Below are positions 3-38,418 of a DNA stretch of 64,000 nt, in pieces. The notes beneath the pieces are model-generated. The model saw only the letters and a list, made by a program, of their open reading frames with translations. It was not told where the DNA came from and ran no database searches. The DNA lies in NCBI GenBank assembly GCA_964342815.1, contig CAYFHS010000006.1, positions 64,001 to 128,000 on the forward strand, read 5' to 3'. The stretch is from an uncultured archaeon (GTDB lineage: Archaea > Thermoplasmatota > Penumbrarchaeia > JASLWR01). Numbering within the stretch: the first letter of the stretch is position 1; every line of letters begins with the position of its first letter. The position numbers and the translations under genes were made by a program.

Positions 3-3000
3 AGCTTCATTGACCCCGATACCCTCGATCCGGGTGATTTCCTGGTAACTATCAATGTACGAGATAGATATGGGGCGGTTGTTGAGATCGTCGATAACGG
101 GAGTAATGGTGAGAAAGGAATCACAATAGTGAAAGAGGAAGCTGCGCTTTGGACTGTAAGCTGTCCATATGATCCCCCCGACGACGTATCACTGGGTTAC
201 TACGACCTCGCCATAGGTTTGCTAGACGGTGATTTCTCATACGTATCCACCGGGTTCCATAACAATTCTGACGAATTACAGCTCTACCGCAACGCCAATC
301 CCGTAATCGAAGAGGTGGAATGCAGCGCGCTCAGGGTAAACGTATTCGGAGAGGATTCCTGCCGTTTCAGCGCGGTTTTTTCTGATGCGGATGCCGAATC
401 AATTGGGAATTTTTCGGTCTATCTTAATTTATTGGACCCTGAGGGAAATGTTCATGGTTTGGTGGGCGGACCCGGTGAGGATCTCAATGCGTCTGCAATG
501 TATATCAGTCCTCTTGACAGCACCCTTTTTGTTTTCAGATATGACATCGACCCGCCTTCTAAGTTCATGGAGGGAGAATATCTGCTGTCCTTCGGTATTA
601 GGGACGGTTGGCAGGGTTTGGATTCCCTGAGCTTTGGAGAGATATTGATAAATCTGTCGTTCTTTTACAACTCATTTCCTTCACCTCCCATGAAGATATG
701 GCCGAACAGCACCACTGATACATTCCCCTTTATCTCATGGTGGGGTGCATTGGACAAGGAAACACCCCACGATAAATTGAAATACTGGATACAGATAGGA
801 ACCTCCCCGGGAGACGACAACGTTCTTGCATGGTATAATACCAACTTCTCAACCTCCTACCAGCCCTTCAGGGAACTTATTACTGGCGTTTATTATATCC
901 AGGTACGGTGTTTCGATGGTGAATATTACTCCGATACAGCGGAAATTGCAATGACAATAACCAGGACCGGTAACCGCCCACCAGAAATTCCGGGACCCAT
1001 CAGCCCAAAAAATACCGTAAGACAGGATCCCATGATTACTTGGGGAGCCAGTACTGAATATGATGTGAATGATATCATTGAATATACCATAACCATTGGG
1101 ACGGATTGGCATTCAAGTGATATAATGAAGGACATTCCCACCGGTGTCAATACGTTCTATCAGCTTCCGTTCAAGCTGGAATACGGCACCTATTACGTGC
1201 AGATCTCGGCGAACGACGGCTATGAGTTCTCCCCTGTTAGGGAGCAGGCCCTGGTTGTATTCGATCCTACCGATAATCTACCACCTTATCCCCCATCATC
1301 GCTGGAACCACGGGAAACGAGAAATTCCCTTCCATTTATCTCCTGGTCAGGTTCTATGGATCTCAACGGAGATACGCTTTTTTTCTGGCTTCAGATCGGG
1401 ACAAGTTCAGGCAGCGGCGATGTGCTTCCTTGGTGGAATACGGGTAAAAACAGTTATTTCCAGCTTTTTGAGGCACTACCGGAAGGTAGGTATTATTTCC
1501 AGCTAAAATGTTTTGACGGCTTTCTGTTTTCCCAGCTCTACGAGACCACCGTGGATATTTTGACCCCTCGTCCCCTTCTGTCTCCCACCAAGCTAGATCC
1601 ATGGTTCACCACTGATCCCATGCCCCTGTTGAAATGGAGCGGTGCCCGTTATTCAGACGGTAACGAAAGTGATGGAAATTTCTCCTATCTCATACGGATC
1701 GGGACCAATGGAACTTCCGGAGATATTATGCCGTGGACCCTGGTCGAAAATCGAACCTATTATCAGCTGGAGGACGAACTTTGGCTTGGAAAATCCGTTT
1801 ATGTCCAGATCAAGACCTTCGACGGAAGCCAATATTCCAACGCTTCGGTCTGGACCCTGGTGGTGACTGAATTTCGTCTGACGGTGGGATTCAACGTGAC
1901 AAATCAATTATTTAATCTGGAAGAGAGAGAAAACCAGATACTTACGGCTTTCATCATGAACCACGGGATCAACGACATAACTGTGAGCTTGAGTGTAGAC
2001 GGTAGTTTATCAAGTTACGTCGAAATACCCGAAAGTACTGTTCTAATTAGACGTGGTGAATTGGTGTCAATAACGCTGCTTGTCAATATACCATCCTCTC
2101 TGTCATTGGGTGAGAATTCAAAAATAACACTGACCGCCAAGGCCTCCGATGGCGCTGTTGCAAGTTCAGAGCCTTTATCCTTCGAAAGAGTTGTGCTGAA
2201 AGACGAGGAATGGTATTCTTCACTTAATGAAAATTTATATTTCATCATAGGGATCATTATACTCAGTTTTACCTTGATATTATTATTGATCTTGATAATA
2301 AAACGGTACAAGAGAGGAAGACGGGAGCGCTTCGGGGCCGTCAATGCTATGGTAGATATCACTGAAGAGGATATGGAAGAATATATTTCTGTCGATAACT
2401 ATTCAAAACGCAGAGCAGCACTCCGTCGATCCCATAGACAAGTCGACGCAGCCATTCTCGAAACGCTTCGAGCACACGGCCTGATGAGCGGAAAAAAGAG
2501 ATTGAAGGTCACATTTCAGCCCCGTCGTGTTCCCCTGGCTTTGAGAGGGGGAGGTGGGAATACAATGGGGACCCAGCCCCGTGCGTTACCGGCGCCACCC
2601 CCCGGTGATGCTCATTCTTCTCTAATCCTCCCTGATTTTGAAGACACATCACTTCTAATGGGAGATACCCCGCCACTGCTTGAAAAGGGCGCTTCGGAAG
2701 ATATTCGTGAACGTCCTCCAGGTCCTCCGGATGATACTCCTGCGCTTCCCGAGTCGGATATACCGGATGCAGGGCCTCTGTTTCAAGGCCCCCCGCCAGA
2801 TGACCTGGAAATGGATTACCTACCCCCTGAATCATTCGAAATTACCCATGACGACCCGATACCTGAAGGTGGGGTTGTTGAAGTTGAAGGTGTACTTGCT
2901 GATGAAAAGGAAGACATGAAGAGTGGTGAAGGTTGGGGTGAATTTGAGGTTGGAGTAACGAATGAAATAAAGAATGAATTTGAGGTCGGAGGGGATATAG

Positions 3001-3599
3001 AGAAAGAGGCTGCATATGAGGTGGGAGGGAATGTCGAGAAAGAAGCTGCCTATGATGTGGGAGGGGATATCGAGAAAGAAGCTGCCTATGATGTGGGAGG
3101 GGATATCGAGAAAGAAGCTGCCTATGATGTGGGAGGGAATATCGAGGAAGAAACTGCATATGATGTGGGAGGGGATATCGAGAAAGAAGCTGCCTATGAT
3201 GTGGGAGGGGATATCGAGAAAGAAGCTACATATGAGGTCGAAGAGGATGTTGAGAAAGAAGCTGCTTATGATGTGGGAGGGGATATCGAGAAAGAAGCTG
3301 CCTATGATGTGGGAGGGAATGTCGAGAAAGAAGCTGCCTATGATGTGGGAGGGAATGTCGAAATAGAAGATGAATTGGATGCTGGTGGAAATATTGAGAT
3401 AGATACCGAACTGAAAGCGGGGATGGATTATGATATGGGAGACGAGAAGAATGCCGGTACCGAAAATAATTTAGATGATCGAGCAGGTGAAATTCAGGAC
3501 GACCCGGAAGCGGTGGAAGAAGACAAATCGGAAGGGAGCAAATCTGCTCTGGACGATATTATAGGAATACTGGGAATTGATGACGATGAAGAATTTTAA
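3..3599 (+). CDS. Large type-I membrane surface protein (5'-partial): four FN3-like repeats, an Ig-like domain, one TM helix, and a Pro-rich then acidic repeat cytoplasmic tail
   Basis: The frame is open from position 3 (SFIDPDTLDPG...), so the true start lies upstream of the window. Four ~100-aa repeats match P..P..I.P..T....P.I.W...D....Y.IQIGT..G..D...W..T.......YY.Q....DG..YS. TM segment LYFIIGIIILSFTLILLLILII is followed by KRYKRGRR. Confidence 0.85.
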   Translation, partial: SFIDPDTLDPGDFLVTINVRDRYGAVVEIVDNGSNGEKGITIVKEEAALWTVSCPYDPPDDVSLGYYDLAIGLLDGDFSYVSTGFHNNSDELQLYRNANPVIEEVECSALRVNVFGEDSCRFSAVFSDADAESIGNFSVYLNLLDPEGNVHGLVGGPGEDLNASAMYISPLDSTLFVFRYDIDPPSKFMEGEYLLSFGIRDGWQGLDSLSFGEILINLSFFYNSFPSPPMKIWPNSTTDTFPFISWWGALDKETPHDKLKYWIQIGTSPGDDNVLAWYNTNFSTSYQPFRELITGVYYIQVRCFDGEYYSDTAEIAMTITRTGNRPPEIPGPISPKNTVRQDPMITWGASTEYDVNDIIEYTITIGTDWHSSDIMKDIPTGVNTFYQLPFKLEYGTYYVQISANDGYEFSPVREQALVVFDPTDNLPPYPPSSLEPRETRNSLPFISWSGSMDLNGDTLFFWLQIGTSSGSGDVLPWWNTGKNSYFQLFEALPEGRYYFQLKCFDGFLFSQLYETTVDILTPRPLLSPTKLDPWFTTDPMPLLKWSGARYSDGNESDGNFSYLIRIGTNGTSGDIMPWTLVENRTYYQLEDELWLGKSVYVQIKTFDGSQYSNASVWTLVVTEFRLTVGFNVTNQLFNLEERENQILTAFIMNHGINDITVSLSVDGSLSSYVEIPESTVLIRRGELVSITLLVNIPSSLSLGENSKITLTAKASDGAVASSEPLSFERVVLKDEEWYSSLNENLYFIIGIIILSFTLILLLILIIKRYKRGRRERFGAVNAMVDITEEDMEEYISVDNYSKRRAALRRSHRQVDAAILETLRAHGLMSGKKRLKVTFQPRRVPLALRGGGGNTMGTQPRALPAPPPGDAHSSLILPDFEDTSLLMGDTPPLLEKGASEDIRERPPGPPDDTPALPESDIPDAGPLFQGPPPDDLEMDYLPPESFEITHDDPIPEGGVVEVEGVLADEKEDMKSGEGWGEFEVGVTNEIKNEFEVGGDIEKEAAYEVGGNVEKEAAYDVGGDIEKEAAYDVGGDIEKEAAYDVGGNIEEETAYDVGGDIEKEAAYDVGGDIEKEATYEVEEDVEKEAAYDVGGDIEKEAAYDVGGNVEKEAAYDVGGNVEIEDELDAGGNIEIDTELKAGMDYDMGDEKNAGTENNLDDRAGEIQDDPEAVEEDKSEGSKSALDDIIGILGIDDDEEF
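2977..3400 (+). repeat. Coding tandem repeat, 36-bp unit (12 aa, AYDVGGDIEKEA), about 11-12 copies
   Basis: Unit gggaggggatatcgagaaagaagctgcctatgatgt repeats head-to-tail with few substitutions, in frame in the cytoplasmic tail. Confidence 0.95.
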
Positions 3600-3987
3600 T
3601 ATCTTAGCCGTCGAGTTATCTCCCAATGGAGAAAAAAACGATAGCCTGAAATTTGCAGTTGGAGCTAACCCTTCCGATTACCGTAAGCTTCTGGATCGAA
3701 TTGCCAGCACATCACAAAAAAAAATTGGATCCGAAAAAAAACCATCACCCAAAAACCCAGCCGGTTTCCCGGATAATAAAACGGAAAACAAGAAGTGCGG
3801 GATTTGCCTCGAAGAGTTCGGACGGCATTCCAAGGTCGTGACCTGCAACTGTGGGAGATGCTATCACATACTATGTGCCACTCAGGTGGGCGAGTGTCCA
3901 ATTTGTGATGCTGATCTCCTGGCCCTCAGCAGCAGATTGATGGACCGTGGTAAAGTAAATGATTATTCCTTCATTTGGGGTAAATGA
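3586..3987 (+). CDS. Small protein with a C4HC3 RING/PHD-like zinc finger (Prok-RING-like)
   Basis: CGIC-x12-CNC-x4-H-x2-C-x6-CPIC. It overlaps the stop of the upstream gene. The ORF track starts at TTG 3577; ATG 3586 is more likely. Confidence 0.75.
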   Translation: MKNFNILAVELSPNGEKNDSLKFAVGANPSDYRKLLDRIASTSQKKIGSEKKPSPKNPAGFPDNKTENKKCGICLEEFGRHSKVVTCNCGRCYHILCATQVGECPICDADLLALSSRLMDRGKVNDYSFIWGK

Positions 3988-4037
3988 ATTTATTTATACC
4001 GCTCCTCTCACCGATACCAGGATGACCTAAATAAAAT

Positions 4038-5657
4038 TCAATGTGAATTGTTCTTTTTGTGTCGTGCGGACTTCGATTCCGAATAACGGTAATAGGGAGA
4101 GAGAGATTCGTAACCCATGCCACCGGGCTCGATATGCGACTCCACGCTGAAGTTCATGGGGGTGGAGATGAAGATATTTTCTTCCTCGAACCTTCGGAGT
4201 ATTTCGTGAAGAAGTTCAGACTTTACTGAACGCATCTTTTTCGGATTGTCCACGTAGAATCTCACTTCCATGATCACGTCGAAATCCCCGAAATTCCGCA
4301 GGATCACCTGTGGCGCTCTTGGTTTTTCCTGTACTTCGGGGTGGCCGTTGCTTATCTCTTTCATTATGCGCTCCGCAGCTGAAACGTTCTTCCATGTGGG
4401 AACAAGCCCAAGCCTTATCCTGACCCTGAGTGATGGTTCCTGCAGGTGGCTGAAGTTGGCGAGAAAATTCTCGGTAATCATCTTGTTAGGAATGGTTAGG
4501 ATCACCCCGTCTGTGGACCTCACCTTTGTGCTTCTGAGGCCGATGCGAAGCACGTCCCCCCACGCGCTGTAAAGTGTTCCGATCTTCTCCGGCAGGAGTA
4601 TCCGATCACCGATCTTGAAGGATTGGTCGAGCATGAGATGGAGACCCGCAAATACATTTGAAAGCGTATCCTGCGCTGCGAATGCCACGACTATTCCGAT
4701 CACTCCCATACTGGTGATGAAAAAAGTGATATCCAGACCCAGCTGGTTCAGTATGATGAAAATACCCACCACCACTATCACGGCACTGCCTATCCTTCGG
4801 GTCATGGGAAGAAGCATCTTGGATACACTGGGCTCGTTCATACGATCTGATATCTTTATTCCGGCATTCACGAGGGTTGTAAGAATCTTGACGCTGACGT
4901 ACATTACGTTGATGATCAGAATGATATTGTAAGTGAGTTCCAGCCAGTATATCACATTGGTCGGGATGGACAGCAGTTTCAGAGATGATAATATCCCGTA
5001 GAGTGCCACGAGAAGTATCAAAGGTCCCCGAACTGCATTTACGATAATGTCATCCAATTTTATTTTCGTCTTGCCAGTCAACCGTTTTATGACATAGGTA
5101 ATGAAAAGTGTCAAAACGATAATGATGATCATCCATATGGCAAGTGACAGTAGAAACGCTCCCCCTTCATTGTCCAGAGGCGCGGGTAGCGGGTTCTTGA
5201 ACGTATCGAATATTAATGGATCGTGTATTTTTTCCACCTTTACCGCCCGCTGCACATCGAAAGTGCCTTCCTCTGAGGTAACAATGAATATCACAATGAC
5301 ATCGACCTCGTCATCGGCATCTTCCGAATTCGGTGTGGCTGCGATTGACACCTTCGAGCTGTTTCCGGGGGTGAGTGTAAAAGGATTTCCACTTTCAATT
5401 TCGATGCTCCATTGCTTGCCTATCTCGGAAAGTATCACTCTTACGGTACAGTTCGTTCTTCCTTCATTCGTAAGTAACCATTCATACCGTGCATCCTCCC
5501 CCGGTTCCACCGCTTTCACTTTAACGTTGGTATCATTGATTTTTAGTTCATCGGTAACGATTCCCGTAACGCTTGTTCCAGCCCCCACTGTCATTATGAG
5601 AAATATGATTAGAAGAAATACCGCTTTTTGCGTTACCTTGAACCCAGGGCGTTTCAT
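4038..5657 (-). CDS. mscS: MscS-family mechanosensitive channel with a signal peptide and an N-terminal extracellular Ig-like domain
   Basis: MscS core motifs FAAQDTLSNVFAG, FKIGDRI, GDVLRIGLRSTKVRSTDGVILTIPNK. About 140 aa of N-terminal beta-rich domain. Confidence 0.9.
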   Translation of the reverse strand: MKRPGFKVTQKAVFLLIIFLIMTVGAGTSVTGIVTDELKINDTNVKVKAVEPGEDARYEWLLTNEGRTNCTVRVILSEIGKQWSIEIESGNPFTLTPGNSSKVSIAATPNSEDADDEVDVIVIFIVTSEEGTFDVQRAVKVEKIHDPLIFDTFKNPLPAPLDNEGGAFLLSLAIWMIIIIVLTLFITYVIKRLTGKTKIKLDDIIVNAVRGPLILLVALYGILSSLKLLSIPTNVIYWLELTYNIILIINVMYVSVKILTTLVNAGIKISDRMNEPSVSKMLLPMTRRIGSAVIVVVGIFIILNQLGLDITFFITSMGVIGIVVAFAAQDTLSNVFAGLHLMLDQSFKIGDRILLPEKIGTLYSAWGDVLRIGLRSTKVRSTDGVILTIPNKMITENFLANFSHLQEPSLRVRIRLGLVPTWKNVSAAERIMKEISNGHPEVQEKPRAPQVILRNFGDFDVIMEVRFYVDNPKKMRSVKSELLHEILRRFEEENIFISTPMNFSVESHIEPGGMGYESLSPYYRYSESKSARHKKNNSH

Positions 5658-29544: not shown

Positions 29545-30648
29545 TTATCTTCGTATTACTACCGATAATATATCCTTGTCCTTCAAAATATGGAATAGAC
29601 CCACCTTTTGACCCGGAAACTTCGCGCTGGGACCCCATATACGGGCATATCGAAAGTTATGCACGAAATCTCTGTGAATGTTGTTGCAGATCGATTCCAC
29701 GTCGGTTCCCATTTTCACCACCATTGGCTCCTCAAGATCCGCTTTTTCCCCCTGTGGTTTAAGGAAAACCCTCATAAATCGCAGGGTATCGAAAATACGG
29801 TCCTTGATCTCCTCTATCCCCTGGTTCTTACCAACGGCAATGGGTAGCGGATTGTAGGACCTGTATTTCGCTATGATCTTGGCAACAATTTCGGATTCGG
29901 CCAGGTCTACCTTGTTTATGAAAAGTAATGTCGGGAGATATTTCACACCACCGGTCAGGCTGTCAATCAACTGGTAAGGTTTGATACGACTTCGTACAAC
30001 CACGGTGGCATTGACGTAACCATAGGTTCTCACCATGTCACGTATCAGCTCTTCGGTCATAAAAGGCTGGTGACAGGTGGAGGCAACTTCGATTCCCCCT
30101 GCGTCGTTAACAGTGATGTGTATGTTCGGAGGAGATTCATTGAGTCTAATCTTTGAATCCCTCAGTTCCCTGATCAATAGGTCCAGGTCAGGGGAGAACA
30201 CGTCGAGCATCAGGATAATGAGATCACTACTCCTTGCCGCGCTTATGACCTGTCGGCCTCGTCCCTTTCCCTTTGACGCTCCCTCGATGAGTCCCGGTAG
30301 GTCGAGAACCTGTATGTTCGCGCCCCGGTGATGAAGGGTACCCGGGACCACATCCAAGGTAGTGAAATTGTACGAACCCACCTCACTCTCCGCATCCGTG
30401 ATACAGTTGAGCATGGTGGACTTTCCCACCGATGGGAATCCAACGATGGAAACCGTTGCATTTCCGCTCTTCTTTACCTCATAACCACCTCCTCCCTTTC
30501 CACCGGCGGAACGGTTTCTCTCGAGATCTTCTTTAAGCTTTGCCACCTTCGCCTTGAGCTTCCCTACGTGGTGTTGGGTGGCTTTGTTGTATTTTGTATT
30601 TCGGATCTCTTCTTCAAGCAGATCGATCTGCTCCTTGATGGTCGCCAT
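29545..30648 (-). CDS. drg: DRG/Obg-family GTPase with TGS domain
   Basis: GFPSVGKST, YNFTTL, DLPGLIEGA, NKVD. C-terminal WGPSAKFPGQKVG TGS signature. Confidence 0.95.
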   Translation of the reverse strand: MATIKEQIDLLEEEIRNTKYNKATQHHVGKLKAKVAKLKEDLERNRSAGGKGGGGYEVKKSGNATVSIVGFPSVGKSTMLNCITDAESEVGSYNFTTLDVVPGTLHHRGANIQVLDLPGLIEGASKGKGRGRQVISAARSSDLIILMLDVFSPDLDLLIRELRDSKIRLNESPPNIHITVNDAGGIEVASTCHQPFMTEELIRDMVRTYGYVNATVVVRSRIKPYQLIDSLTGGVKYLPTLLFINKVDLAESEIVAKIIAKYRSYNPLPIAVGKNQGIEEIKDRIFDTLRFMRVFLKPQGEKADLEEPMVVKMGTDVESICNNIHRDFVHNFRYARIWGPSAKFPGQKVGLFHILKDKDILSVVIRR

Positions 30649-30760: not shown

Positions 30761-32302
30761 TTGCTAGCGAGGAAGACCCTGCTGATCATTGCGAATAACG
30801 TCGCAGGCGGAATATTGGGATACATCATCCTGTTCGTCATTGCCAGGTACATGATTAACGCCGATTACACATACGGAGTTGTAGCCTTCGGTCTAGCAAC
30901 TCTCGGCTTGTTCATGTTCATTCTAAATCCAGGTACCAATACGGCCCATATAAAGAAGGTGTCCGAGGGAAAAGATGTTGGGACCTGTATCGGTACTTAC
31001 CTGGCAATGAAGGTTGTGTTAACAGCTTTCTTTCTATTTGTGGTACTGGTTGGAATATTCAGCTGGAAACATGTATTTAATCAGGGGTTTGAGTCCAACA
31101 AGATAGAAGTGGCCATATACATCCTTCTCTTTAACTACGTGCTTACCTCCTTCAACGGTGTCTTCGTTGCCACGTATGAGGCAAGAAAGGAGATTGCAAA
31201 GGCTCAACTGGGAATGCTGATGTCCACTCTATCAAGACTGGCGGCCGTCCTGATAATCGTGTACTTCCAGATGGGTGTATACGGTCTTGCTTGGACTTGG
31301 AACATCAGTATGATGGCATACTTTTTTGTGTCCATATTGATGTTCAGGGGTTACAGGATAAAACGCCCATCCTGGACACTTGCCAAGGATTATATAAAAT
31401 TCGCCTTTCCAATTATGTTCATTACCATCGCATTCGTTCTGGTAGTCACAACTGACAGGGTAATGCTGGGTTATTTCTGGAAACCGGAAGACGTGGGTCA
31501 CTATTTTGCAGCATGGCGCATAACAGTCTTCATCATAATGTTCGGAGTTGCTGTGCAGAAACTAGTATTCCCCACTATATCGGAATACCATACGGAAAAC
31601 AAGGAGGGCCACATTCAAAACCTTAGCTGGGTAGCCGAGAAATATATTGGCCTTTTCATCATACCCATCTGTTTTTTTATGGCTGTGTTTCCAAGTGACG
31701 TGATCCATATTATGACCAGCGATGACTTTCTTCCGGCAGCACCCATACTCCGTATTTTTGCCATTTACTCATTACTTATCGCACTCAATACTCCATATGC
31801 GTCCCAGTTTGCTGGAACTAACCGGCCCCGAATGGCGGCCCTGTTGGGAATCCCCGCCGCCTTTTTGAATATATTATTGAACCTCATTTTAATACCTGCA
31901 TCCCTATTTGGAATCCCACTTGCAGGTCTTAAAGGCGTGGGTGCGGCACTGGGAACTCTCATATCCACAACCATTTATGTCGTTGTATCCCGTATAGTAA
32001 TATACAAGTCCATATCTGGGACTAAAAGCAATTGGAAAATAATATTCAACTTGATATCCGCAGGACTGATGAGCCTTTTTCTCTACTACGTTCTTTACCA
32101 GTATCATCCTATAATCCGATATTATGACATCTTTCTCTTCATGGTTGTGGGAGCGTTAATCTATTTTGCCGCAATGTTCGTATTCCGCCAGTTCACAAAG
32201 AAAGAAGTCGTATATCTTCTCAAAGTGGTGGATCCCGTACAGATGATAAAATACATTAAGAACGAAGTATTTAACAGAAATGAAAGGAGTTCTGGAAAAT
32301 AG
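30761..32302 (+). CDS. Oligosaccharide flippase (MOP superfamily, Wzx/RfbX-like)
   Basis: About 14 TM. TDRVMLGYF..VGHYFAAWRI, FPTISEY, GVGAALGT. TTG 30761 is the plausible start; the ORF track start 30554 overlaps drg. Confidence 0.88.
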   Translation: MLARKTLLIIANNVAGGILGYIILFVIARYMINADYTYGVVAFGLATLGLFMFILNPGTNTAHIKKVSEGKDVGTCIGTYLAMKVVLTAFFLFVVLVGIFSWKHVFNQGFESNKIEVAIYILLFNYVLTSFNGVFVATYEARKEIAKAQLGMLMSTLSRLAAVLIIVYFQMGVYGLAWTWNISMMAYFFVSILMFRGYRIKRPSWTLAKDYIKFAFPIMFITIAFVLVVTTDRVMLGYFWKPEDVGHYFAAWRITVFIIMFGVAVQKLVFPTISEYHTENKEGHIQNLSWVAEKYIGLFIIPICFFMAVFPSDVIHIMTSDDFLPAAPILRIFAIYSLLIALNTPYASQFAGTNRPRMAALLGIPAAFLNILLNLILIPASLFGIPLAGLKGVGAALGTLISTTIYVVVSRIVIYKSISGTKSNWKIIFNLISAGLMSLFLYYVLYQYHPIIRYYDIFLFMVVGALIYFAAMFVFRQFTKKEVVYLLKVVDPVQMIKYIKNEVFNRNERSSGK

Positions 32303-32335
32303 AAATGGAAAAATAAAAAAGGAGAATAACTGCGA

Positions 32336-32680
32336 CTACTTTTTCTTCGCCGCAGCCTTTACTGTCTTCAGTTTTCTCTCAAGAGATGAGATATCCGCAT
32401 CCGCCGTGTTAATAAATGTTTTGAGATTGGTAATCCGCTGAACGAGTATATCGTATTTTTCCTCATACTCAAGTGTGTCGACCCTTGTTACCAATCCGAA
32501 CTCCTCGATATAATTGTTGAAGTTCTCGTCCAGATATCGCTCGATCCTTCCGTCGAAAAATCTTCTTTTGTAATGAGCTTCTTCCGGTGCTACTTTTTCT
32601 TTTGAGAAGAGCTTTTTGACCCGGGCGAAAAAGGGCGGCTTCTCTTCCATTTCCTGTTCCTGTTCGGTTAATTCTGCCAT
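32336..32680 (-). CDS. Coiled-coil protein, paralog A (BMFP/UbiK/phasin-like motif)
   Basis: RIERYLDENFNNYIEEFGLVTRVD followed by heptads. GGAGG SD. Confidence 0.75.
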   Translation of the reverse strand: MAELTEQEQEMEEKPPFFARVKKLFSKEKVAPEEAHYKRRFFDGRIERYLDENFNNYIEEFGLVTRVDTLEYEEKYDILVQRITNLKTFINTADADISSLERKLKTVKAAAKKK

Positions 32681-32694
32681 ATCCTTTTCCTCCT

Positions 32695-33030
32695 TTAGAA
32701 TTCCTCCAAGCTTTTCATTCCCTTCTCAATGGAATCCATTCGGGAATTGATGGAAGTCTTCTTTTTCTTTATCGTCCCGATATCCCGGCTGATAACCTTT
32801 AACTTCTTATTCATATCCTTTTTCCAGGTCTTTACCTTGGACCGGGGCATCAGGTCCCATTCGTCAATGATGTTCCGGAAATGTTCATCGAAATAGAGTT
32901 GGATGTGATCCGCTCCTCCTCCTCTTTTCTTCTTCAACTGATAAATATAATATATCAAGTAAACGAAGACAAAAGCCAATAATAGGACCACAATGAATAT
33001 TCCGACCTGTTGAAATGTTGACATTGCCAT
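32695..33030 (-). CDS. Membrane-anchored coiled-coil protein, paralog B
   Basis: N-terminal TM VGIFIVVLLLAFVFVYLIYYIY, then HIQLYFDEHFRNIIDEWDLMPR and Lys-rich heptads. ATG 33030 with GGAGG SD (ORF track 33048). Confidence 0.75.
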   Translation of the reverse strand: MAMSTFQQVGIFIVVLLLAFVFVYLIYYIYQLKKKRGGGADHIQLYFDEHFRNIIDEWDLMPRSKVKTWKKDMNKKLKVISRDIGTIKKKKTSINSRMDSIEKGMKSLEEF

Positions 33031-33031
33031 A

Positions 33032-33313
33032 TTATTTCCCCTCCACACCGTATTTTAATTCGAGCCTTTCCATTCGAAGCCGGGCCTTTTTCAAACGCTC
33101 TTCGGTTTCTTCTTTCCATGAATCCAGATCATTCAATTCTGTTTCCGCCCAGTTGAAAGAACTGTCTACGTCGATAAAATCGTTCTTGGTGGCCAACCGG
33201 TGAGTATCGATCAATTCCGGTAAATGCTCACTGATATACCTATCGATCTTTCGGGGATTGCCCCCGGTGAGTTCCCTGAAGTATGCGGATATTCTTTCGC
33301 TTACACCTACCAT
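33032..33313 (-). CDS. Coiled-coil protein, paralog C
   Basis: KIDRYISEHLPELIDTHRLATKND followed by heptads. GGAGG SD. Confidence 0.75.
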   Translation of the reverse strand: MVGVSERISAYFRELTGGNPRKIDRYISEHLPELIDTHRLATKNDFIDVDSSFNWAETELNDLDSWKEETEERLKKARLRMERLELKYGVEGK

Positions 33314-33346
33314 TTTATTCCTCCTTTAACATTTTTAGGATGAGTA

Positions 33347-33754
33347 TCATTCAGTATTATCTTTTTCATCTTCTTCAGCCTCTTCTTCATCTTTCTTGCG
33401 GATGATTTTGTCTTTTATCTTTTGATACCCGTCCTTCAAACTCTCGGTATATTTTTTGTAATTTTTTAATATGACTGTGTCTCCGTCCTGGATCTTCAAT
33501 TTGTTCATATCCCTTTGCCTTATTGAAGCAACATTGATGGAAATGAATTTATCCGCGTTCAATTTCACGATTACTCCCTTATCGATCTCCGGTGTACAGA
33601 GAAACACTTTGTCGCCTGGGTTGAAGTCCACACTTTCCATGAGGGATTCATGAACTCTTACCAGGCCCGGCTGCCCCTTAATCATGCTGGTTTTCGCCTT
33701 CAGTTCCAGTTTGGGCACCTCAAGTTCTTCAATTTCTTCCTTTTCCATGATCAT
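33347..33754 (-). CDS. Stand-alone double-psi beta-barrel protein (Cdc48/VAT N-domain-like) with a charged tail
   Basis: Two-fold internal pattern G.VRV...LM......PGD.V and ...SI...DM.KL.I.DGD.V. No AAA domain. TAATG overlap with the upstream gene. Confidence 0.6.
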   Translation of the reverse strand: MIMEKEEIEELEVPKLELKAKTSMIKGQPGLVRVHESLMESVDFNPGDKVFLCTPEIDKGVIVKLNADKFISINVASIRQRDMNKLKIQDGDTVILKNYKKYTESLKDGYQKIKDKIIRKKDEEEAEEDEKDNTE

Positions 33755-34263
33755 TACTCCTTTTCTTCTTCTTCTTCTTTCGATGGGAAAAGTTCATCAT
33801 AGGTCTTCCTGAGAACCATCTCCCCCCCGAGGCTCTTAATTTCTTCCGGCGATATCCTGAGGCGACGACTTTTGAAGCCTGTGGTGATCATTATCTTCCA
33901 TATTTTCCATATCTTCAATTTCTCAGGTATATCAAAATCAGTGACCTTTCCGATCTTTTTGTTGTCAGATGAAACTACTGATATTCCCACAAAGTCCTTG
34001 CACATGAACATCTCTCTCTTCGAGGTCAAAGGGATTTCCTCTTCCTCGTGTTCGTCGGTGAGAAGTATGAGATTATTGTCCATATCGAATTTTTGTACAT
34101 ACTTTTCGTGTATCAGTTTCTTGGCCTTCTTGCCCATCCCATGAGAGATCACAAAATGGGTAACCCGCCATGTATTGGTATTCAATATCATGCCCACTTG
34201 TTTGCCGATGATACCTTCGATGGCTTTTTTGAATTCAAATTCCTTTACCCTAGAGTATAACAT
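33754..34263 (-). CDS. Tandem PRC-barrel protein
   Basis: Two PRC-like halves: IGKQVGMILNTNTWRVTHFVI..., and DFVGISVVSSDNKKIGKVTDFDI. GGAGG SD. Confidence 0.7.
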   Translation of the reverse strand: MLYSRVKEFEFKKAIEGIIGKQVGMILNTNTWRVTHFVISHGMGKKAKKLIHEKYVQKFDMDNNLILLTDEHEEEEIPLTSKREMFMCKDFVGISVVSSDNKKIGKVTDFDIPEKLKIWKIWKIMITTGFKSRRLRISPEEIKSLGGEMVLRKTYDELFPSKEEEEEKE

Positions 34264-34368
34264 TGCTTTTCCTCCATTTTTGAGATGTGCGAACTAACGA
34301 GACTAATGGATTATCTATTTATATAAGTTTCGGTGAACTCTCCTTCTTGCGAGGAATAATTGTGGAAA

Positions 34369-35568
34369 TCAATAGGGGTCTCTTTTACCGAATGTGAATA
34401 CAAAAAGAGCGAGTAGTATGACGATTGTTATTAATATGACCAGAACTATCAAAACGGGCTGAGGATCATCACCATTCTGCGGTGTTTCGCCTTCTTTCAC
34501 GTGGAAGTTCATTTCGACCAGCGTAAATTCCGTTCCGTTATAGGTATATTCTATACGGTACATCCAATCACCGACGGTAATCCCTTCAGTAGTAAGATCA
34601 ACTCTTCGCTCATAGATCGCACCTTTTTTTGGGGTTCCCGTCTCATGAGGAATGTTACCTGAAAAAATGAGGGTGTCCGTAGAACTGTTGAATATGCTAA
34701 CCATTATCTTGTCCGGCGGATCGCCCTCTGCGTCCTTGTAGCTTATCTGGAACATTATGGGTTTATTTGCGAACAGCTCCGGAGGGATGTTTGTCAAGTC
34801 TTTGACATCCGGGAGTGTATCATTCAAGGGTAGTTCGCCTTCGATGATGTTGATGGGAAAGGTCTTAACATATGTCCAATTGTTATCTCCGTCCTTCTTT
34901 CTTGTGGTTTTGATCGAGTAATTGTAGGACTCAATCGTATGATGCAATCTTCCGATGTATTTCGTATATATTCCACCGTCATTTGACATTATATAATTAG
35001 TATCATTTACCACTATCTCGACCTGTACGATCCGGTCCCCATCCGGATCGGTTATATTTGCCGAGAAGACGATCTCATCATTCGTCGTATGAACATAATC
35101 AGGGCGTGGTGTGATGGTATCGATAATAGGGGCCGCATCGCTTTCCCGGATGGAAAAGGGAGCTCTGGCGGATTCTCCCGTGGCACCGCTTTCAAGTTCC
35201 ATGTGATGAATGAAATGCCATGCACCGGGTGACAGGTCACCTGTGTTCAATTTAAGGTGGAGCCTGAAAAAATTCGCAAAGGGCATTTCGGTATCGTTTC
35301 GTTTGTACTGGAAGGTATATGTGCTATTCGCCTCATCAATGAGAGTGATGTATGTTCCAGTCCGGTGCATGCCGGAATATTTAATCTCCCCGTCTGTTTG
35401 GACCTGTGCAATAAAGTGAATCGTGTCCCCCTTGATTATCGTGTCCGAGATATCCGTGGCATCCACCACCGACAACTCTCCTTCCTCCCCTTTAGACTTA
35501 TGAGTGGGGAAAAGTAACAGATTTAGTAAAAATAAAAAAATGACAACAATAGTAAACAGTTTTTTCAT
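34369..35568 (-). CDS. Secreted protein with three Ig-like modules and a C-terminal TM anchor
   Basis: Signal peptide MKKLFTIVVIF (ATG 35568; ORF track 35628). FSANITDPDGD and FQISYKDAEGDPP modules. TM followed by GKRDPY. Confidence 0.78.
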   Translation of the reverse strand: MKKLFTIVVIFLFLLNLLLFPTHKSKGEEGELSVVDATDISDTIIKGDTIHFIAQVQTDGEIKYSGMHRTGTYITLIDEANSTYTFQYKRNDTEMPFANFFRLHLKLNTGDLSPGAWHFIHHMELESGATGESARAPFSIRESDAAPIIDTITPRPDYVHTTNDEIVFSANITDPDGDRIVQVEIVVNDTNYIMSNDGGIYTKYIGRLHHTIESYNYSIKTTRKKDGDNNWTYVKTFPINIIEGELPLNDTLPDVKDLTNIPPELFANKPIMFQISYKDAEGDPPDKIMVSIFNSSTDTLIFSGNIPHETGTPKKGAIYERRVDLTTEGITVGDWMYRIEYTYNGTEFTLVEMNFHVKEGETPQNGDDPQPVLIVLVILITIVILLALFVFTFGKRDPY

Positions 35569-35805
35569 TCTACATTCCTCGTACCAGTTCCGGTTGTTGA
35601 TCAGCACCTGTGAGCTACTTTGAATCATAGTGCTGGTTATATATAATTATGCACCGTATTATAAATAATTTCGTCTCTCCTATTGGTAAGGTATTATTAT
35701 AATTGGAAATTGAATAATCGGGGAAAATATTTTTAATACAACGAAAGATAGATTACCTGATAACATTTTTCCAATAATGTATTTCAGAGTTAGGAAGGTG
35801 TGATA

Positions 35806-38418
35806 ATGCAGCGTATATTCAGAAAAAGCGTAGTTGGAGTAATTTGCATTTTATTACTATTAGTTACAATGATTATAACGCCTGAAATTCTTGGCGAGAA
35901 AGCGCATGAGACACGGGCCTATCAGCTCCCTGTTTGGAAATCGGATGATTGGTGGAAATATTATTACCATTCGGATGAGCCCCTGTTTCTGGATTCCGGG
36001 GATATTCAAGTAACCATCGACGAGATCACGACCGTGGAGGTCTTGACGGTGGCAGGAAGTGAATCTGTTATGGTCAACGGGACTTCATATGACATATATA
36101 ACGTTACGATCGAAGGCAATATCGCTCAAAAGGGCTCTTATGTATATGGTCAATATTCGGGCCCGTACACGGATAACAGCGAATCAACCGGATTTGCCTA
36201 CTACCGAAGGTCTGACCTTGCCTTCATAAAAAGGGTGGATGATATCACGGGTACCATAACAATGACGATCATGGGAAGCCCTCAAAATAGTCCTTACACA
36301 AGTACCGTTTTAACGAATATGCAGCCGCCCCGGGAGGATTTCAATTTTCCCATGTCACATTTAAGCACGTGGAATGTCAATTCCCTGCAGACTGTAAACC
36401 AGACCTTTTCATCCCAGGGGCAGACCGAGTCAGTGGAGACTCATACACTCTTCAGTTACATCGCCACCGTGGGAGCCGAGGACAAGGGAGAAGTGGCTGG
36501 CAGGGTTGTGGACTTTTATCCCATTCATGGGGTAGGAACCGCGGTGGGGGGCGGCAATACGGCCCCTTTCGAGGTGTACAATAATTATTCGTCTGTGGTG
36601 AAGAACTCCATCATAGGTCTCATCGGTTTCGGTGATGTTGACAGTCCTCCAGGTTCGGGGGATCTTACTATTGATGTTGAAGATTTTTTAATTGCACCAC
36701 AATCCCCCAGAGAAGGAGTGAGAGCGAATATAAGCTGTGAGATATCAAACGTGGGCTATGGGAACGTAGCATACCCCAGGGTTAGAGCGGAACTGGATGG
36801 TGATACTTATGGTGAAGACATCATCATCGATATGATCGAATCGTACGGTAAATACACCATTTACTATGACATCGTGCCACTAGATCGTGGATCCCATAGT
36901 TTCGAGATCATTTTGGACCCCGATAACTTGATCGAGGAAAGCGATGAAACCAATAACGGGGCTGTTTTTACCTTCGAGGTTGCTGCCAACAAAGAACCGT
37001 TGATAACTGGTTATCAGCCCTTTACGAATATTATTATCAACAAGGGTTCCACTGCGGTTTTTGAAATAGTTGCAAGTGACCCGGATGGGGATAAGATCAA
37101 TTATGAATGGACCGTTGATGGAGGAACGGTTTCAGGTGCAAATGGACCGGATTGCGAAATTGCATTTACAGGTGTCGACGAGGGTGATGAGCTGGTGGTC
37201 AAGGCAGTTGTGTACGATGATTTCAATGCCAATGTTTCCCATGAATGGGGGGTAACCATCAATACGGCCCCAACCATTACCGGTCACACTCCACCGGAAC
37301 AGATGATCACCACACTAGAGGGCGAAGAAGTTGATTTCGTCATCACTTACGATAATGCAGGAGAGGAATCCATTATCTTTCGATGGTATCTTGATGATGA
37401 TCTCCTTCACTGGGAGAAGGCTGGTTTTTTTACCTTCGAGGCCGCCCTTAGCGGTGCGAATTCCTCTGAGGGTTCACCATACGAGATCAAAGTTGTTGTG
37501 GAAGACTTTTTGAACCTCACAGACGAGTATTCATGGACTCTGCAGGTGGACAATATGAATCAGGCACCTCAAATTATCAATGCGTTTGCAGGAGGGGCCG
37601 CACGCGAGATGCAAACCATCAATGAGACCGAGAATATGAATTATAATATAACTGCCCTTGATCCGGACAACGACGCTTTGACCTATACCTGGTTCGTTGA
37701 CGGACAGGAGATCACCGGGGCAAAGGCCGCGGATTTTATCTATACCACAGATAAAGACACGGTAACCCACCTAAATGGAAGGAGAACCCAGGATTTCATC
37801 ATCAAGGTGCTTTGCGACGACGGCGAATTAAATGACACGTTCACGTGGATCCTGAGAGTGGTGGACATCAACAGAGCACCGATCATATCTTTCGAAGAAT
37901 CTCTAGATTCCGCCTTGTCCGGTATTAAAGAGGGTGAAATGGCCGCTCTCAATGTAAGTTCGGAAGATTCCGACGGTGATGTCATGACGTATCAATGGTT
38001 GCTGGATGGTGAGATATTGGCAGTTGATCCCTCCTTCACCATCAGTTTCAAGGAAGGGGATCACACCATCCAACTGCTTGTGGACGACGGTTATGACAAA
38101 ACTCGGACGGAAATATTTAATTTTACAATTCTGCCAGGAGAAACAGGGCCTGGAAACTCCGGGAATACCGATGGCAGCAAGGGTGGAAAAGGTATTCCTC
38201 TCTGGGCCGTGATCGTCATAGTACTTGTGGTGCTGGTTGTCATCATGGTAATTATTCTTTTAATAAAAAGAAAAAAGCCGGTAGCGAAAGTATCTTTTGA
38301 GGGAGTGAATGAACACAAGGAGAATGTTATATTCTTGTGCCCTAAATGCAACGAGAAAGAAGACCTTGATCTGGGTTACTGCATCAGCTGCGGAAATGAT
38401 TTCAGCCATAAAAAATGA
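35806..38418 (+). CDS. Surface protein: N-terminal beta-rich domain, CARDB, Ig/PKD repeats, TM and a zinc ribbon
   Basis: Signal peptide. IILDPDNLIEESDETNN CARDB motif. A.DPDGD.L.Y.W.VDG repeats. TM LWAVIVIVLVVLVVIMVIILLI. CPKC...CISC. Confidence 0.82.
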   Translation: MQRIFRKSVVGVICILLLLVTMIITPEILGEKAHETRAYQLPVWKSDDWWKYYYHSDEPLFLDSGDIQVTIDEITTVEVLTVAGSESVMVNGTSYDIYNVTIEGNIAQKGSYVYGQYSGPYTDNSESTGFAYYRRSDLAFIKRVDDITGTITMTIMGSPQNSPYTSTVLTNMQPPREDFNFPMSHLSTWNVNSLQTVNQTFSSQGQTESVETHTLFSYIATVGAEDKGEVAGRVVDFYPIHGVGTAVGGGNTAPFEVYNNYSSVVKNSIIGLIGFGDVDSPPGSGDLTIDVEDFLIAPQSPREGVRANISCEISNVGYGNVAYPRVRAELDGDTYGEDIIIDMIESYGKYTIYYDIVPLDRGSHSFEIILDPDNLIEESDETNNGAVFTFEVAANKEPLITGYQPFTNIIINKGSTAVFEIVASDPDGDKINYEWTVDGGTVSGANGPDCEIAFTGVDEGDELVVKAVVYDDFNANVSHEWGVTINTAPTITGHTPPEQMITTLEGEEVDFVITYDNAGEESIIFRWYLDDDLLHWEKAGFFTFEAALSGANSSEGSPYEIKVVVEDFLNLTDEYSWTLQVDNMNQAPQIINAFAGGAAREMQTINETENMNYNITALDPDNDALTYTWFVDGQEITGAKAADFIYTTDKDTVTHLNGRRTQDFIIKVLCDDGELNDTFTWILRVVDINRAPIISFEESLDSALSGIKEGEMAALNVSSEDSDGDVMTYQWLLDGEILAVDPSFTISFKEGDHTIQLLVDDGYDKTRTEIFNFTILPGETGPGNSGNTDGSKGGKGIPLWAVIVIVLVVLVVIMVIILLIKRKKPVAKVSFEGVNEHKENVIFLCPKCNEKEDLDLGYCISCGNDFSHKK

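Follow-up and report, generated by a model that had tools for sequence, protein, structure and literature searches.

Five small genes on the minus strand (32336-34263) of a 64,000-nucleotide (nt) stretch of DNA from an uncultured archaeon (GTDB lineage Thermoplasmatota; Penumbrarchaeia; JASLWR01; contig CAYFHS010000006.1 of assembly GCA_964342815.1, positions 64,001 to 128,000; the whole stretch is called the window here) encode a tandem PRC-barrel protein, a stand-alone double-psi beta-barrel (DPBB) protein and three coiled-coil proteins, which we call coil subunits C, B and A. These genes appear to belong to a six-to-eight-gene module that occurs in two archaeal phyla and is apparently undescribed. 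We consider it fairly probable that the operon subunits form a hitherto undescribed, enzyme-free complex at the cytoplasmic face of the membrane. The original prediction for this stretch had proposed a five-gene operon; its five genes are real and co-conserved in other genomes, but the unit as a whole is a lineage-specific fragment of the larger module.

The module in Thermoplasmatota and Methanomicrobiales

The layout of the operon is confirmed in the sequence in all predicted details. The gaps between the five co-directional genes measure 0-33 nt, GGAGG stands 6-9 nt upstream of four of the five start codons, genes 1 and 2 are joined by a TAATG stop/start overlap, and gene 5 converges with a plus-strand gene for a MOP-type flippase (Polysacc_synt/MatE) which ends at 32302. 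A whole-genome search with the DPBB, followed by local analysis, recovered the five genes as one cluster in 16 genomes of the window's class; the co-conservation that the original prediction demanded is thereby found. In the window's family the order is PRC-DPBB-C-B-A; the other genomes have DPBB-C-B-A-PRC.

Three of the same-class loci continue with three further genes, namely c16 (a transmembrane helix and a coiled coil, about 137 amino acids, aa), c17 (with a zinc ribbon, CPxC...CxxC, at the C-terminus of about 117 aa in all) and c18, a Prok-RING_2 zinc finger (PF14445). No Pfam or NCBIfam family covers c16 or c17. Six Thermoplasmatota genomes of other families, all outside the window's class, share the order DPBB-C-B-c16-A-c17-PRC; four of these six distant stretches have c18 next to the cluster, and in two of them it is followed by a small transmembrane protein. 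The genome under study likewise possesses the additional genes, with c16 and c17 together on contig C9 and a c16 paralogue with c18 (45-49 bits for PF14445) on contig C1, all of them unlinked from the operon.

Coil genes were found in 37 of 201 sampled Thermoplasmatota genomes (31 of the window's class, 6 elsewhere). In 34 of these 37 the number of coil matches is a multiple of three (3, 6 or 9), and the three exceptions, with 2, 4 and 5 matches, are all fragmented assemblies of 100-980 contigs. The triplet and c18 also occur together across the same 201 genomes, even where they are unlinked: 32 genomes have both, 5 the triplet only, 7 c18 only and 157 neither, counts which are descriptive, carry no test and come from related genomes that are not independent. 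Ten genomes carry two or three full DPBB-C-B-A-PRC clusters (6 or 9 coil matches) and a single Prok-RING_2 gene. In one of them (G030, contig C464) two cluster copies with identical scores are separated by about 4.2 kb and may represent a repeat in the assembly.

A merged A/B/C profile searched against 1.84 billion representatives returned sister coil families of about 100, 73 and 115 aa, which map to Methanoregula, Methanospirillum and related Methanomicrobiales. At 67 Methanomicrobiales loci, three tandem coil genes, the last with a transmembrane helix, are accompanied by the DPBB (65 of 67), c16 (66 of 67) and c18 (62 of 67); the c18 of Methanospirillum reaches 115 bits for Prok-RING_2. Neither c17 nor the tandem PRC gene is present at any of these 67 loci, and the PRC profile found no match in two whole Methanomicrobiales genomes that carry the module core. 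Among 251 genomes of the phylum of Methanospirillum (the Halobacteriota side), 14 have coil genes, each exactly three in tandem.

The coil families of the two phyla are homologous (hhalign 99.5%, E 4e-23). In a tree of 39 sequences, the Thermoplasmatota subunits A, B and C and the groups D1, D2 and D3 each form one group with support of 95-100, and the groups bearing the transmembrane helix, B and D3 of Methanomicrobiales, are joined with support of 98/95. The transmembrane columns were excluded from this tree by the fill filter, and the tree does not resolve the relations among A, C, D1 and D2. Since B and D3 group together without those columns, the split between anchored and soluble subunits predates the divergence of the two versions.

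The coil subunits and their predicted trimer

The three coil subunits differ in their ends and agree in their middle part. Subunit C (33032..33313, minus strand, 93 aa) has a short amphipathic N-terminus, the head motif, a coil whose first half is acidic and a conserved LKYGV tail. Subunit B (32695..33030, minus strand, 111 aa), the presumed membrane anchor, starts with a transmembrane helix, followed by KKKR, the head motif and a Lys-rich coil; we took as its start the ATG at 33030 behind a GGAGG, where the list of open reading frames (ORFs) has an upstream GTG at 33048. Subunit A (32336..32680, minus strand, 114 aa) combines an acidic N-terminus, an amphipathic FFARVKKLF segment, the head motif, the coil and a basic tail.

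Pairwise similarity is weak in BLASTP (A-B E=1e-5, B-C 0.002, A-C 0.27). Comparison of family profiles, built from 16 orthologues each (the 16 relatives of A came from a word-index search), gives hhalign probabilities of 88.8-94.6% and E values of 2.5e-6 to 7e-8, with C at 94.6% to A and 91.5% to B, and the aligned part consists of the head motif and the coil. The three proteins are thus paralogues, as had been proposed, and the motif that they were said to share, [RHK]-I-x-x-Y-[LFI]-[DS]-E-[NH]-[FL]-x-x-x-I-[ED]-x-x-x-L-x-[TP]-[RK], is real.

Two further predicted features of the triplet are upheld by the family data. Only B has a transmembrane segment (residues 11-29), with a 19-residue mean hydrophobicity of 1.0 versus 0.14 in A and 0.07 in C. 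The first half of the coil has a net charge of +6 in B versus -2 in A and -7 in C, and the pattern is kept in the family means (+2.8, -1.8 and -6.1, respectively). Because the transmembrane helix of B is followed by KKKR, the positive-inside rule suggests that its coil is cytoplasmic.

A structure prediction of A, B and C together passed the mark set for complexes, with an ipSAE of 0.78 (0.79, 0.78 and 0.78 in single runs), where the best of three controls reached 0.33; in calibration, 58 of 80 solved complexes attained this mark, as did 2 of 110 mismatched pairs. The runs share at least 89% of their contacts, and the scored partner, C, has a predicted local distance difference test (pLDDT) of at least 80. 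The predicted contacts describe a parallel, in-register bundle of three chains, heads included (e.g., A86/B87/C63). We interpret this as support for binding and not as its demonstration. Together with the charge complementarity and the strict three-gene unit, the prediction argues for the membrane-tethered A/B/C hetero-oligomer envisaged at the outset.

Searches for known relatives of the coil subunits returned little. None of A, B and C has a Pfam or NCBIfam match above threshold, the only signals being coiled-coil noise (CdvA coil, XhlA, DUF16). Profile searches of the PDB with A and C pointed to the P22 gp26 needle, tektin and HA2, all with marginal E values; these are generic trimeric or dimeric coils, which we treated as composition effects. 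Long repetitive proteins from the search of representatives, in which many stretches match coil positions 55-99 only, were set aside as coil-only matches. The ESM Atlas returned only unnamed archaeal clusters for A and c16, plus a lead (0.79) to PhaE (PHA_synth_III_E).

The original prediction had also likened the turn and coil to UbiK/BMFP and to PhaF-type phasins, and neither likeness amounts to membership of those families. For UbiK/BMFP (PF04380), hhalign gives a probability of 13.6% (26 columns), which falls to 0.8% with the methanogen family; the UbiK profile was built from sequences of 78-84% identity. An hmmscan of 65 coil members found no match to Pfam BMFP at E<=0.1. For Phasin (PF05597) the best score is 20.6 bits versus a cut-off of 28.8, and only profile positions of about 83-125 are covered. 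Such sub-threshold matches occur in 14 of 21 Methanomicrobiales members (best E 4e-4) and in 4 of 44 A/B/C members, and they are confined to the C-terminal zipper of about 45 positions. The 89% complete genome gave no match to PhaC_N (PF07167) or PhaE (PF09712); a class III PhaC without PhaC_N was not searched for separately.

The barrel proteins and the surroundings of the operon

Gene 1 (33754..34263, minus strand, 169 aa), assigned from the ORF list, Pfam and a structure model, is a tandem PRC-barrel protein, in agreement with the original prediction. Its C-terminal half (residues 85-153) belongs to Pfam PRC (PF05239) with 23.9 bits versus a cut-off of 21.2 (21.7 bits in the whole-genome Pfam scan). 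The AlphaFold model, based on an alignment of 16 orthologues (pLDDT 87.8), contains two PRC barrels in one chain. Its top Foldseek matches are the chains of 8qzo, the CdpB1/CdpB2 complex of A. fulgidus (E 6e-9, TM-score 0.65-0.74, full length), followed by the single PRC barrels 1pm3, 8onw and 3htr, and the family profile likewise finds 8qzo_A in the PDB (E=2e-4). Two single-domain PRC proteins of this genome match different parts of the 182-residue chain of 8qzo, one the N-terminal and the other the C-terminal half, so the operon protein looks like a CdpB1/CdpB2-type pair of barrels in one chain.

PRC-barrel division proteins were recognised only in 2023-24. CdpB1-3 act in the division of H. 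volcanii, and many archaea have PRC genes in the neighbourhood of Cdc48 (bioRxiv 10.1101/2023.03.28.534520). The operon protein is not recovered as an orthologue of these proteins, as other PRC proteins of the genome match the 8qzo/8onw chains far better: two CdpB1-like genes (contigs C24 and C8) have a best E of 4e-9 and one CdpB2-like gene (C5) an E of 1e-6, compared to 2e-4 for the family profile of the operon protein. On the minus strand of contig C5 (locus L037), the CdpB2-like PRC gene (2740-3018, 92 aa) lies directly upstream of a Cdc48 gene (3036-5243, 735 aa), a pair which corresponds to the PRC-Cdc48 neighbourhood reported in the division preprint.

The second gene (33347..33754, minus strand, 135 aa), assigned from profile and model, encodes a stand-alone DPBB which is of the same type as the Cdc48/p97 N domain and carries an acidic helical tail. 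It scores 25.0 bits for Pfam CDC48_N (PF02359), below the cut-off of 35.1. Despite the sub-threshold score, the assignment to the Cdc48/NSF type made in the original prediction is borne out by the family profile, which matches designed and VCP-derived DPBBs (7dvc, E=1.2e-4), and by the model, in which the barrel has a pLDDT of 80-92. Foldseek superposes this model on p97/Cdc48 N domains (E about 2e-6, root mean square deviation 1.3-2.1 over about 85 residues) and also on the isolated DPBBs 7dg9 and 7dww, and the fold is a double-psi barrel with two beta-alpha-beta halves.

Barrels of this type are found in other settings as well. A second stand-alone DPBB gene of this genome, 53% identical, is located on contig C45 (22351-22683; locus L038) in a different cluster, which is also represented by L016 and L017 and is kept in three genomes of the family. 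Besides the DPBB, this cluster encodes YbjQ_1 (PF01906), a pair of zinc-ribbon proteins and a membrane protein with DUF4234. The pairing of a free DPBB with a zinc-ribbon protein may be a recurring theme. In Methanospirillum purgamenti (L095:4785-5597), a 270-aa DPBB protein continues with apolipoprotein-like amphipathic repeats (E 2e-6) and then a TrkA_C-like domain (E 1e-3); it is possible that this is a ligand-sensing version of the barrel subunit.

The borders of the operon carry candidate signals, both read from the sequence. A TATA-like element, CTTATATAAATAG (34315..34327, minus strand), lies about 55 nt before the ATG of gene 1 and may be the operon promoter, and a T-rich run, TTTTTTATTTTT (32309..32322, minus strand), a few bases past the stop of gene 5 is a candidate archaeal terminator. 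Beyond the convergent flippase, a gene for a DRG/Obg-type GTPase (MMR_HSR1 and TGS; 29545-30648, minus strand) overlaps the region in which the flippase ORF is annotated to start; a later ATG is probably the true start of the flippase. Upstream of the operon, 34369-35628 (minus strand) and 35800-38418 (plus strand) encode two large surface proteins, secreted or anchored, in which Ig/PKD-like repeats are combined with a transmembrane helix at the C-terminus. The former has homologues that flank the cluster at L013 and L014, in two further genomes of the family, and the latter has one in the same-genus genome (L013); neither is conserved further away. At the loci examined there is no conserved neighbour outside the module, and the flanking genes vary by lineage.

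Proposed role, alternatives and known systems

In the arrangement that we propose, A, B and C would assemble 1:1:1 as a parallel, in-register trimer, in which the short head helix of each chain leads via a turn (L-x-T/P-R/K) into a coil of about 45 residues. The transmembrane helix of B would anchor this stalk with KKKR on the cytoplasmic side, and the basic coil of B would pair with the acidic coils of A and C. Gene linkage suggests that the DPBB and the tandem PRC protein could be protein-binding subunits of the same complex, and the products of c16, c17 and c18, although unlinked in this genome, may be further subunits or direct partners. As no enzyme is present, we infer a scaffold on the cytoplasmic membrane face; the PRC and DPBB subunits might tie this scaffold either to the PRC-barrel/SepF/FtsZ division network or to Cdc48. 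Six to eight small enzyme-free genes which stay together over two phyla, with a strict three-gene unit and conserved charge complementarity, bear the signature of a stoichiometric structural complex. Our confidence in any specific cellular role is well under half.

Several observations weigh against this proposal, and in particular against the link to division. The PRC protein cannot be central to the core function, because the Methanomicrobiales versions do without it. The genome has separate CdpB1-like and CdpB2-like proteins of its own, and the operon PRC protein is therefore an extra paralogue and not the division orthologue. Beside the module, ftsZ, sepF and cdpB1 were encountered in no locus examined. 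The complex prediction was built on our own alignments and covered the A+B+C combination and three controls; three paralogous helices may, moreover, be easily laid side by side by such a prediction.

The module can also be read more broadly, as an ancient archaeal membrane machine that lacks a described counterpart and is older than the divergence of Thermoplasmatota and Methanomicrobiales. Such a machine would consist of an obligate A/B/C stalk, a Cdc48-N-like barrel, a second transmembrane coil and a RING-like finger, and would act as a membrane organiser in division, envelope shaping or Cdc48-linked remodelling. We put this forward tentatively, as a possibility that we would not yet bet on. 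If true, free DPBB and PRC barrels would work as a pair independently of an AAA+ ATPase.

Other readings share some of the same evidence. The module could be a membrane receptor or adaptor for Cdc48/VAT-type unfoldases in the quality control or extraction of membrane proteins, with the DPBB as a mimic of the Cdc48 N-domain, the PRC protein as a partner linked to Cdc48 and the RING-like finger as the part that marks or recruits clients. The barrel is indeed most like the N domains of p97/Cdc48, Prok-RING_2 is conserved together with the module, the genome holds two Cdc48 copies, and a PRC gene directly precedes one Cdc48 gene in a neighbourhood reported in many archaea. We nevertheless regard an adaptor as unlikely, considering that no Cdc48, proteasome, ubiquitin-like, E1 or E2 gene was seen in or beside any module locus examined and that the free DPBB lacks the beta-clam subdomain, which forms the cofactor-binding cleft of the p97 N domain. 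Furthermore, Burroughs and colleagues reportedly concluded in 2011 that prokaryotic RING-like fingers are not all ubiquitin-related, which we count against this reading as well.

A phasin-like coat or tether of a hydrophobic inclusion or lipid surface, with the coils as PhaF/PhaI-type phasins and the DPBB as an AbrB-type granule regulator, is quite improbable in our estimation. The PF05597 matches that suggest it, in both the Methanomicrobiales and the A/B/C members, all stay under 28.8 bits and span about 45 positions only. The Atlas lead to PHA_synth_III_E is set against an 89% complete genome in which PhaC_N and PhaE were not found, and the amphipathic repeats of the Methanomicrobiales DPBB against one coil subunit that is predicted to be an integral membrane protein and against Foldseek matches of the operon barrel that, as listed, are almost all Cdc48/p97 N domains or designed and VCP-derived DPBBs, with no AbrB-type entry. 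We give very little credence to a device for membrane fusion, scission or tethering, in which a singly anchored three-helix bundle would zipper like SNAREs or a BMFP fusogen and the NSF/Cdc48-N-like barrel would act as its handler. This is pure analogy, prompted by a predicted membrane-anchored, heteromeric parallel coil beside a stand-alone barrel of the NSF/Cdc48-N type; the short LVTR-type motif likeness to UbiK/BMFP is not significant in profile comparison, and no AAA+ ATPase is linked to the module. With one predicted anchor per trimer, placed on the side of the other two chains, no geometry for pairing in trans is evident.

A cytoplasmic-face scaffold would be of interest because archaeal cell biology is still short of most membrane-associated machinery. 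The combination of a PRC barrel with a free barrel of the Cdc48-N type echoes the unexplained PRC-Cdc48 gene neighbourhood, and suggests a direct interaction of these two ancient domains. The marker Prok-RING_2, the only module component searched for in a set of 14 control genomes, matched none of them; as four archaeal models (H. volcanii, M. jannaschii, M. acetivorans and S. acidocaldarius) are in this set, this may be why the module is unstudied. A full-text search of the available papers found no description of the function or gene context of Prok-RING_2. Carrier species of Methanospirillum and Methanoregula are cultured, so that biochemistry and localisation are feasible.

The cluster matches no characterised system that we found. 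An anti-phage defence or viral module was rejected, as PADLOC gave no match, PHROGs gave two weak matches of unknown function, and a scan of IMG/VR viral contigs with B gave no relative. None of the Dip system, CdpC and ten new mid-cell proteins of H. volcanii matches a module component, and the loci contain no Vps4 or ESCRT-III gene that would point to ESCRT/Cdv. The literature on PRC-barrel division proteins, CdpA/CdpC, the Dip oscillator, ESCRT diversity and archaeal dark matter describes no such module.

The individual components nevertheless resemble known proteins to different degrees. The coil subunits share with UbiK/BMFP a short helix, a turn of the LV(T/S)R-E-E-F type and a subsequent coil, and BMFP is reported to be trimeric; in contrast to UbiK/BMFP, which is described as a soluble bacterial homo-oligomer, the archaeal coil is predicted to be heteromeric and membrane-anchored. 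With the phasins of PF05597 (PhaF/PhaI-type) they have in common an L-x-T-R-x-D/E turn followed by a leucine-zipper-like coil, but the matches cover the last third of that model, and here a heteromeric triplet with one transmembrane subunit is predicted. The whole model of the operon PRC protein superposes on the 8qzo chains of CdpB1/CdpB2 (H. volcanii; A. fulgidus 8QZO and 8ONW); it differs in having both barrels in one polypeptide, in a marginal sequence similarity and in that no linkage to SepF or FtsZ was seen. The operon DPBB has the same fold as the Cdc48/p97/VAT N domain, with matches to VCP-derived and designed DPBBs, but is stand-alone, without the beta-clam subdomain and the AAA+ modules and below the Pfam cut-off, and its Methanomicrobiales counterpart departs from the Cdc48 N domain by its fusion to amphipathic repeats and a TrkA_C-like domain. 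By its scores in both Methanospirillum and the genome studied here, c18 is a clear member of Prok-RING_2 (PF14445).

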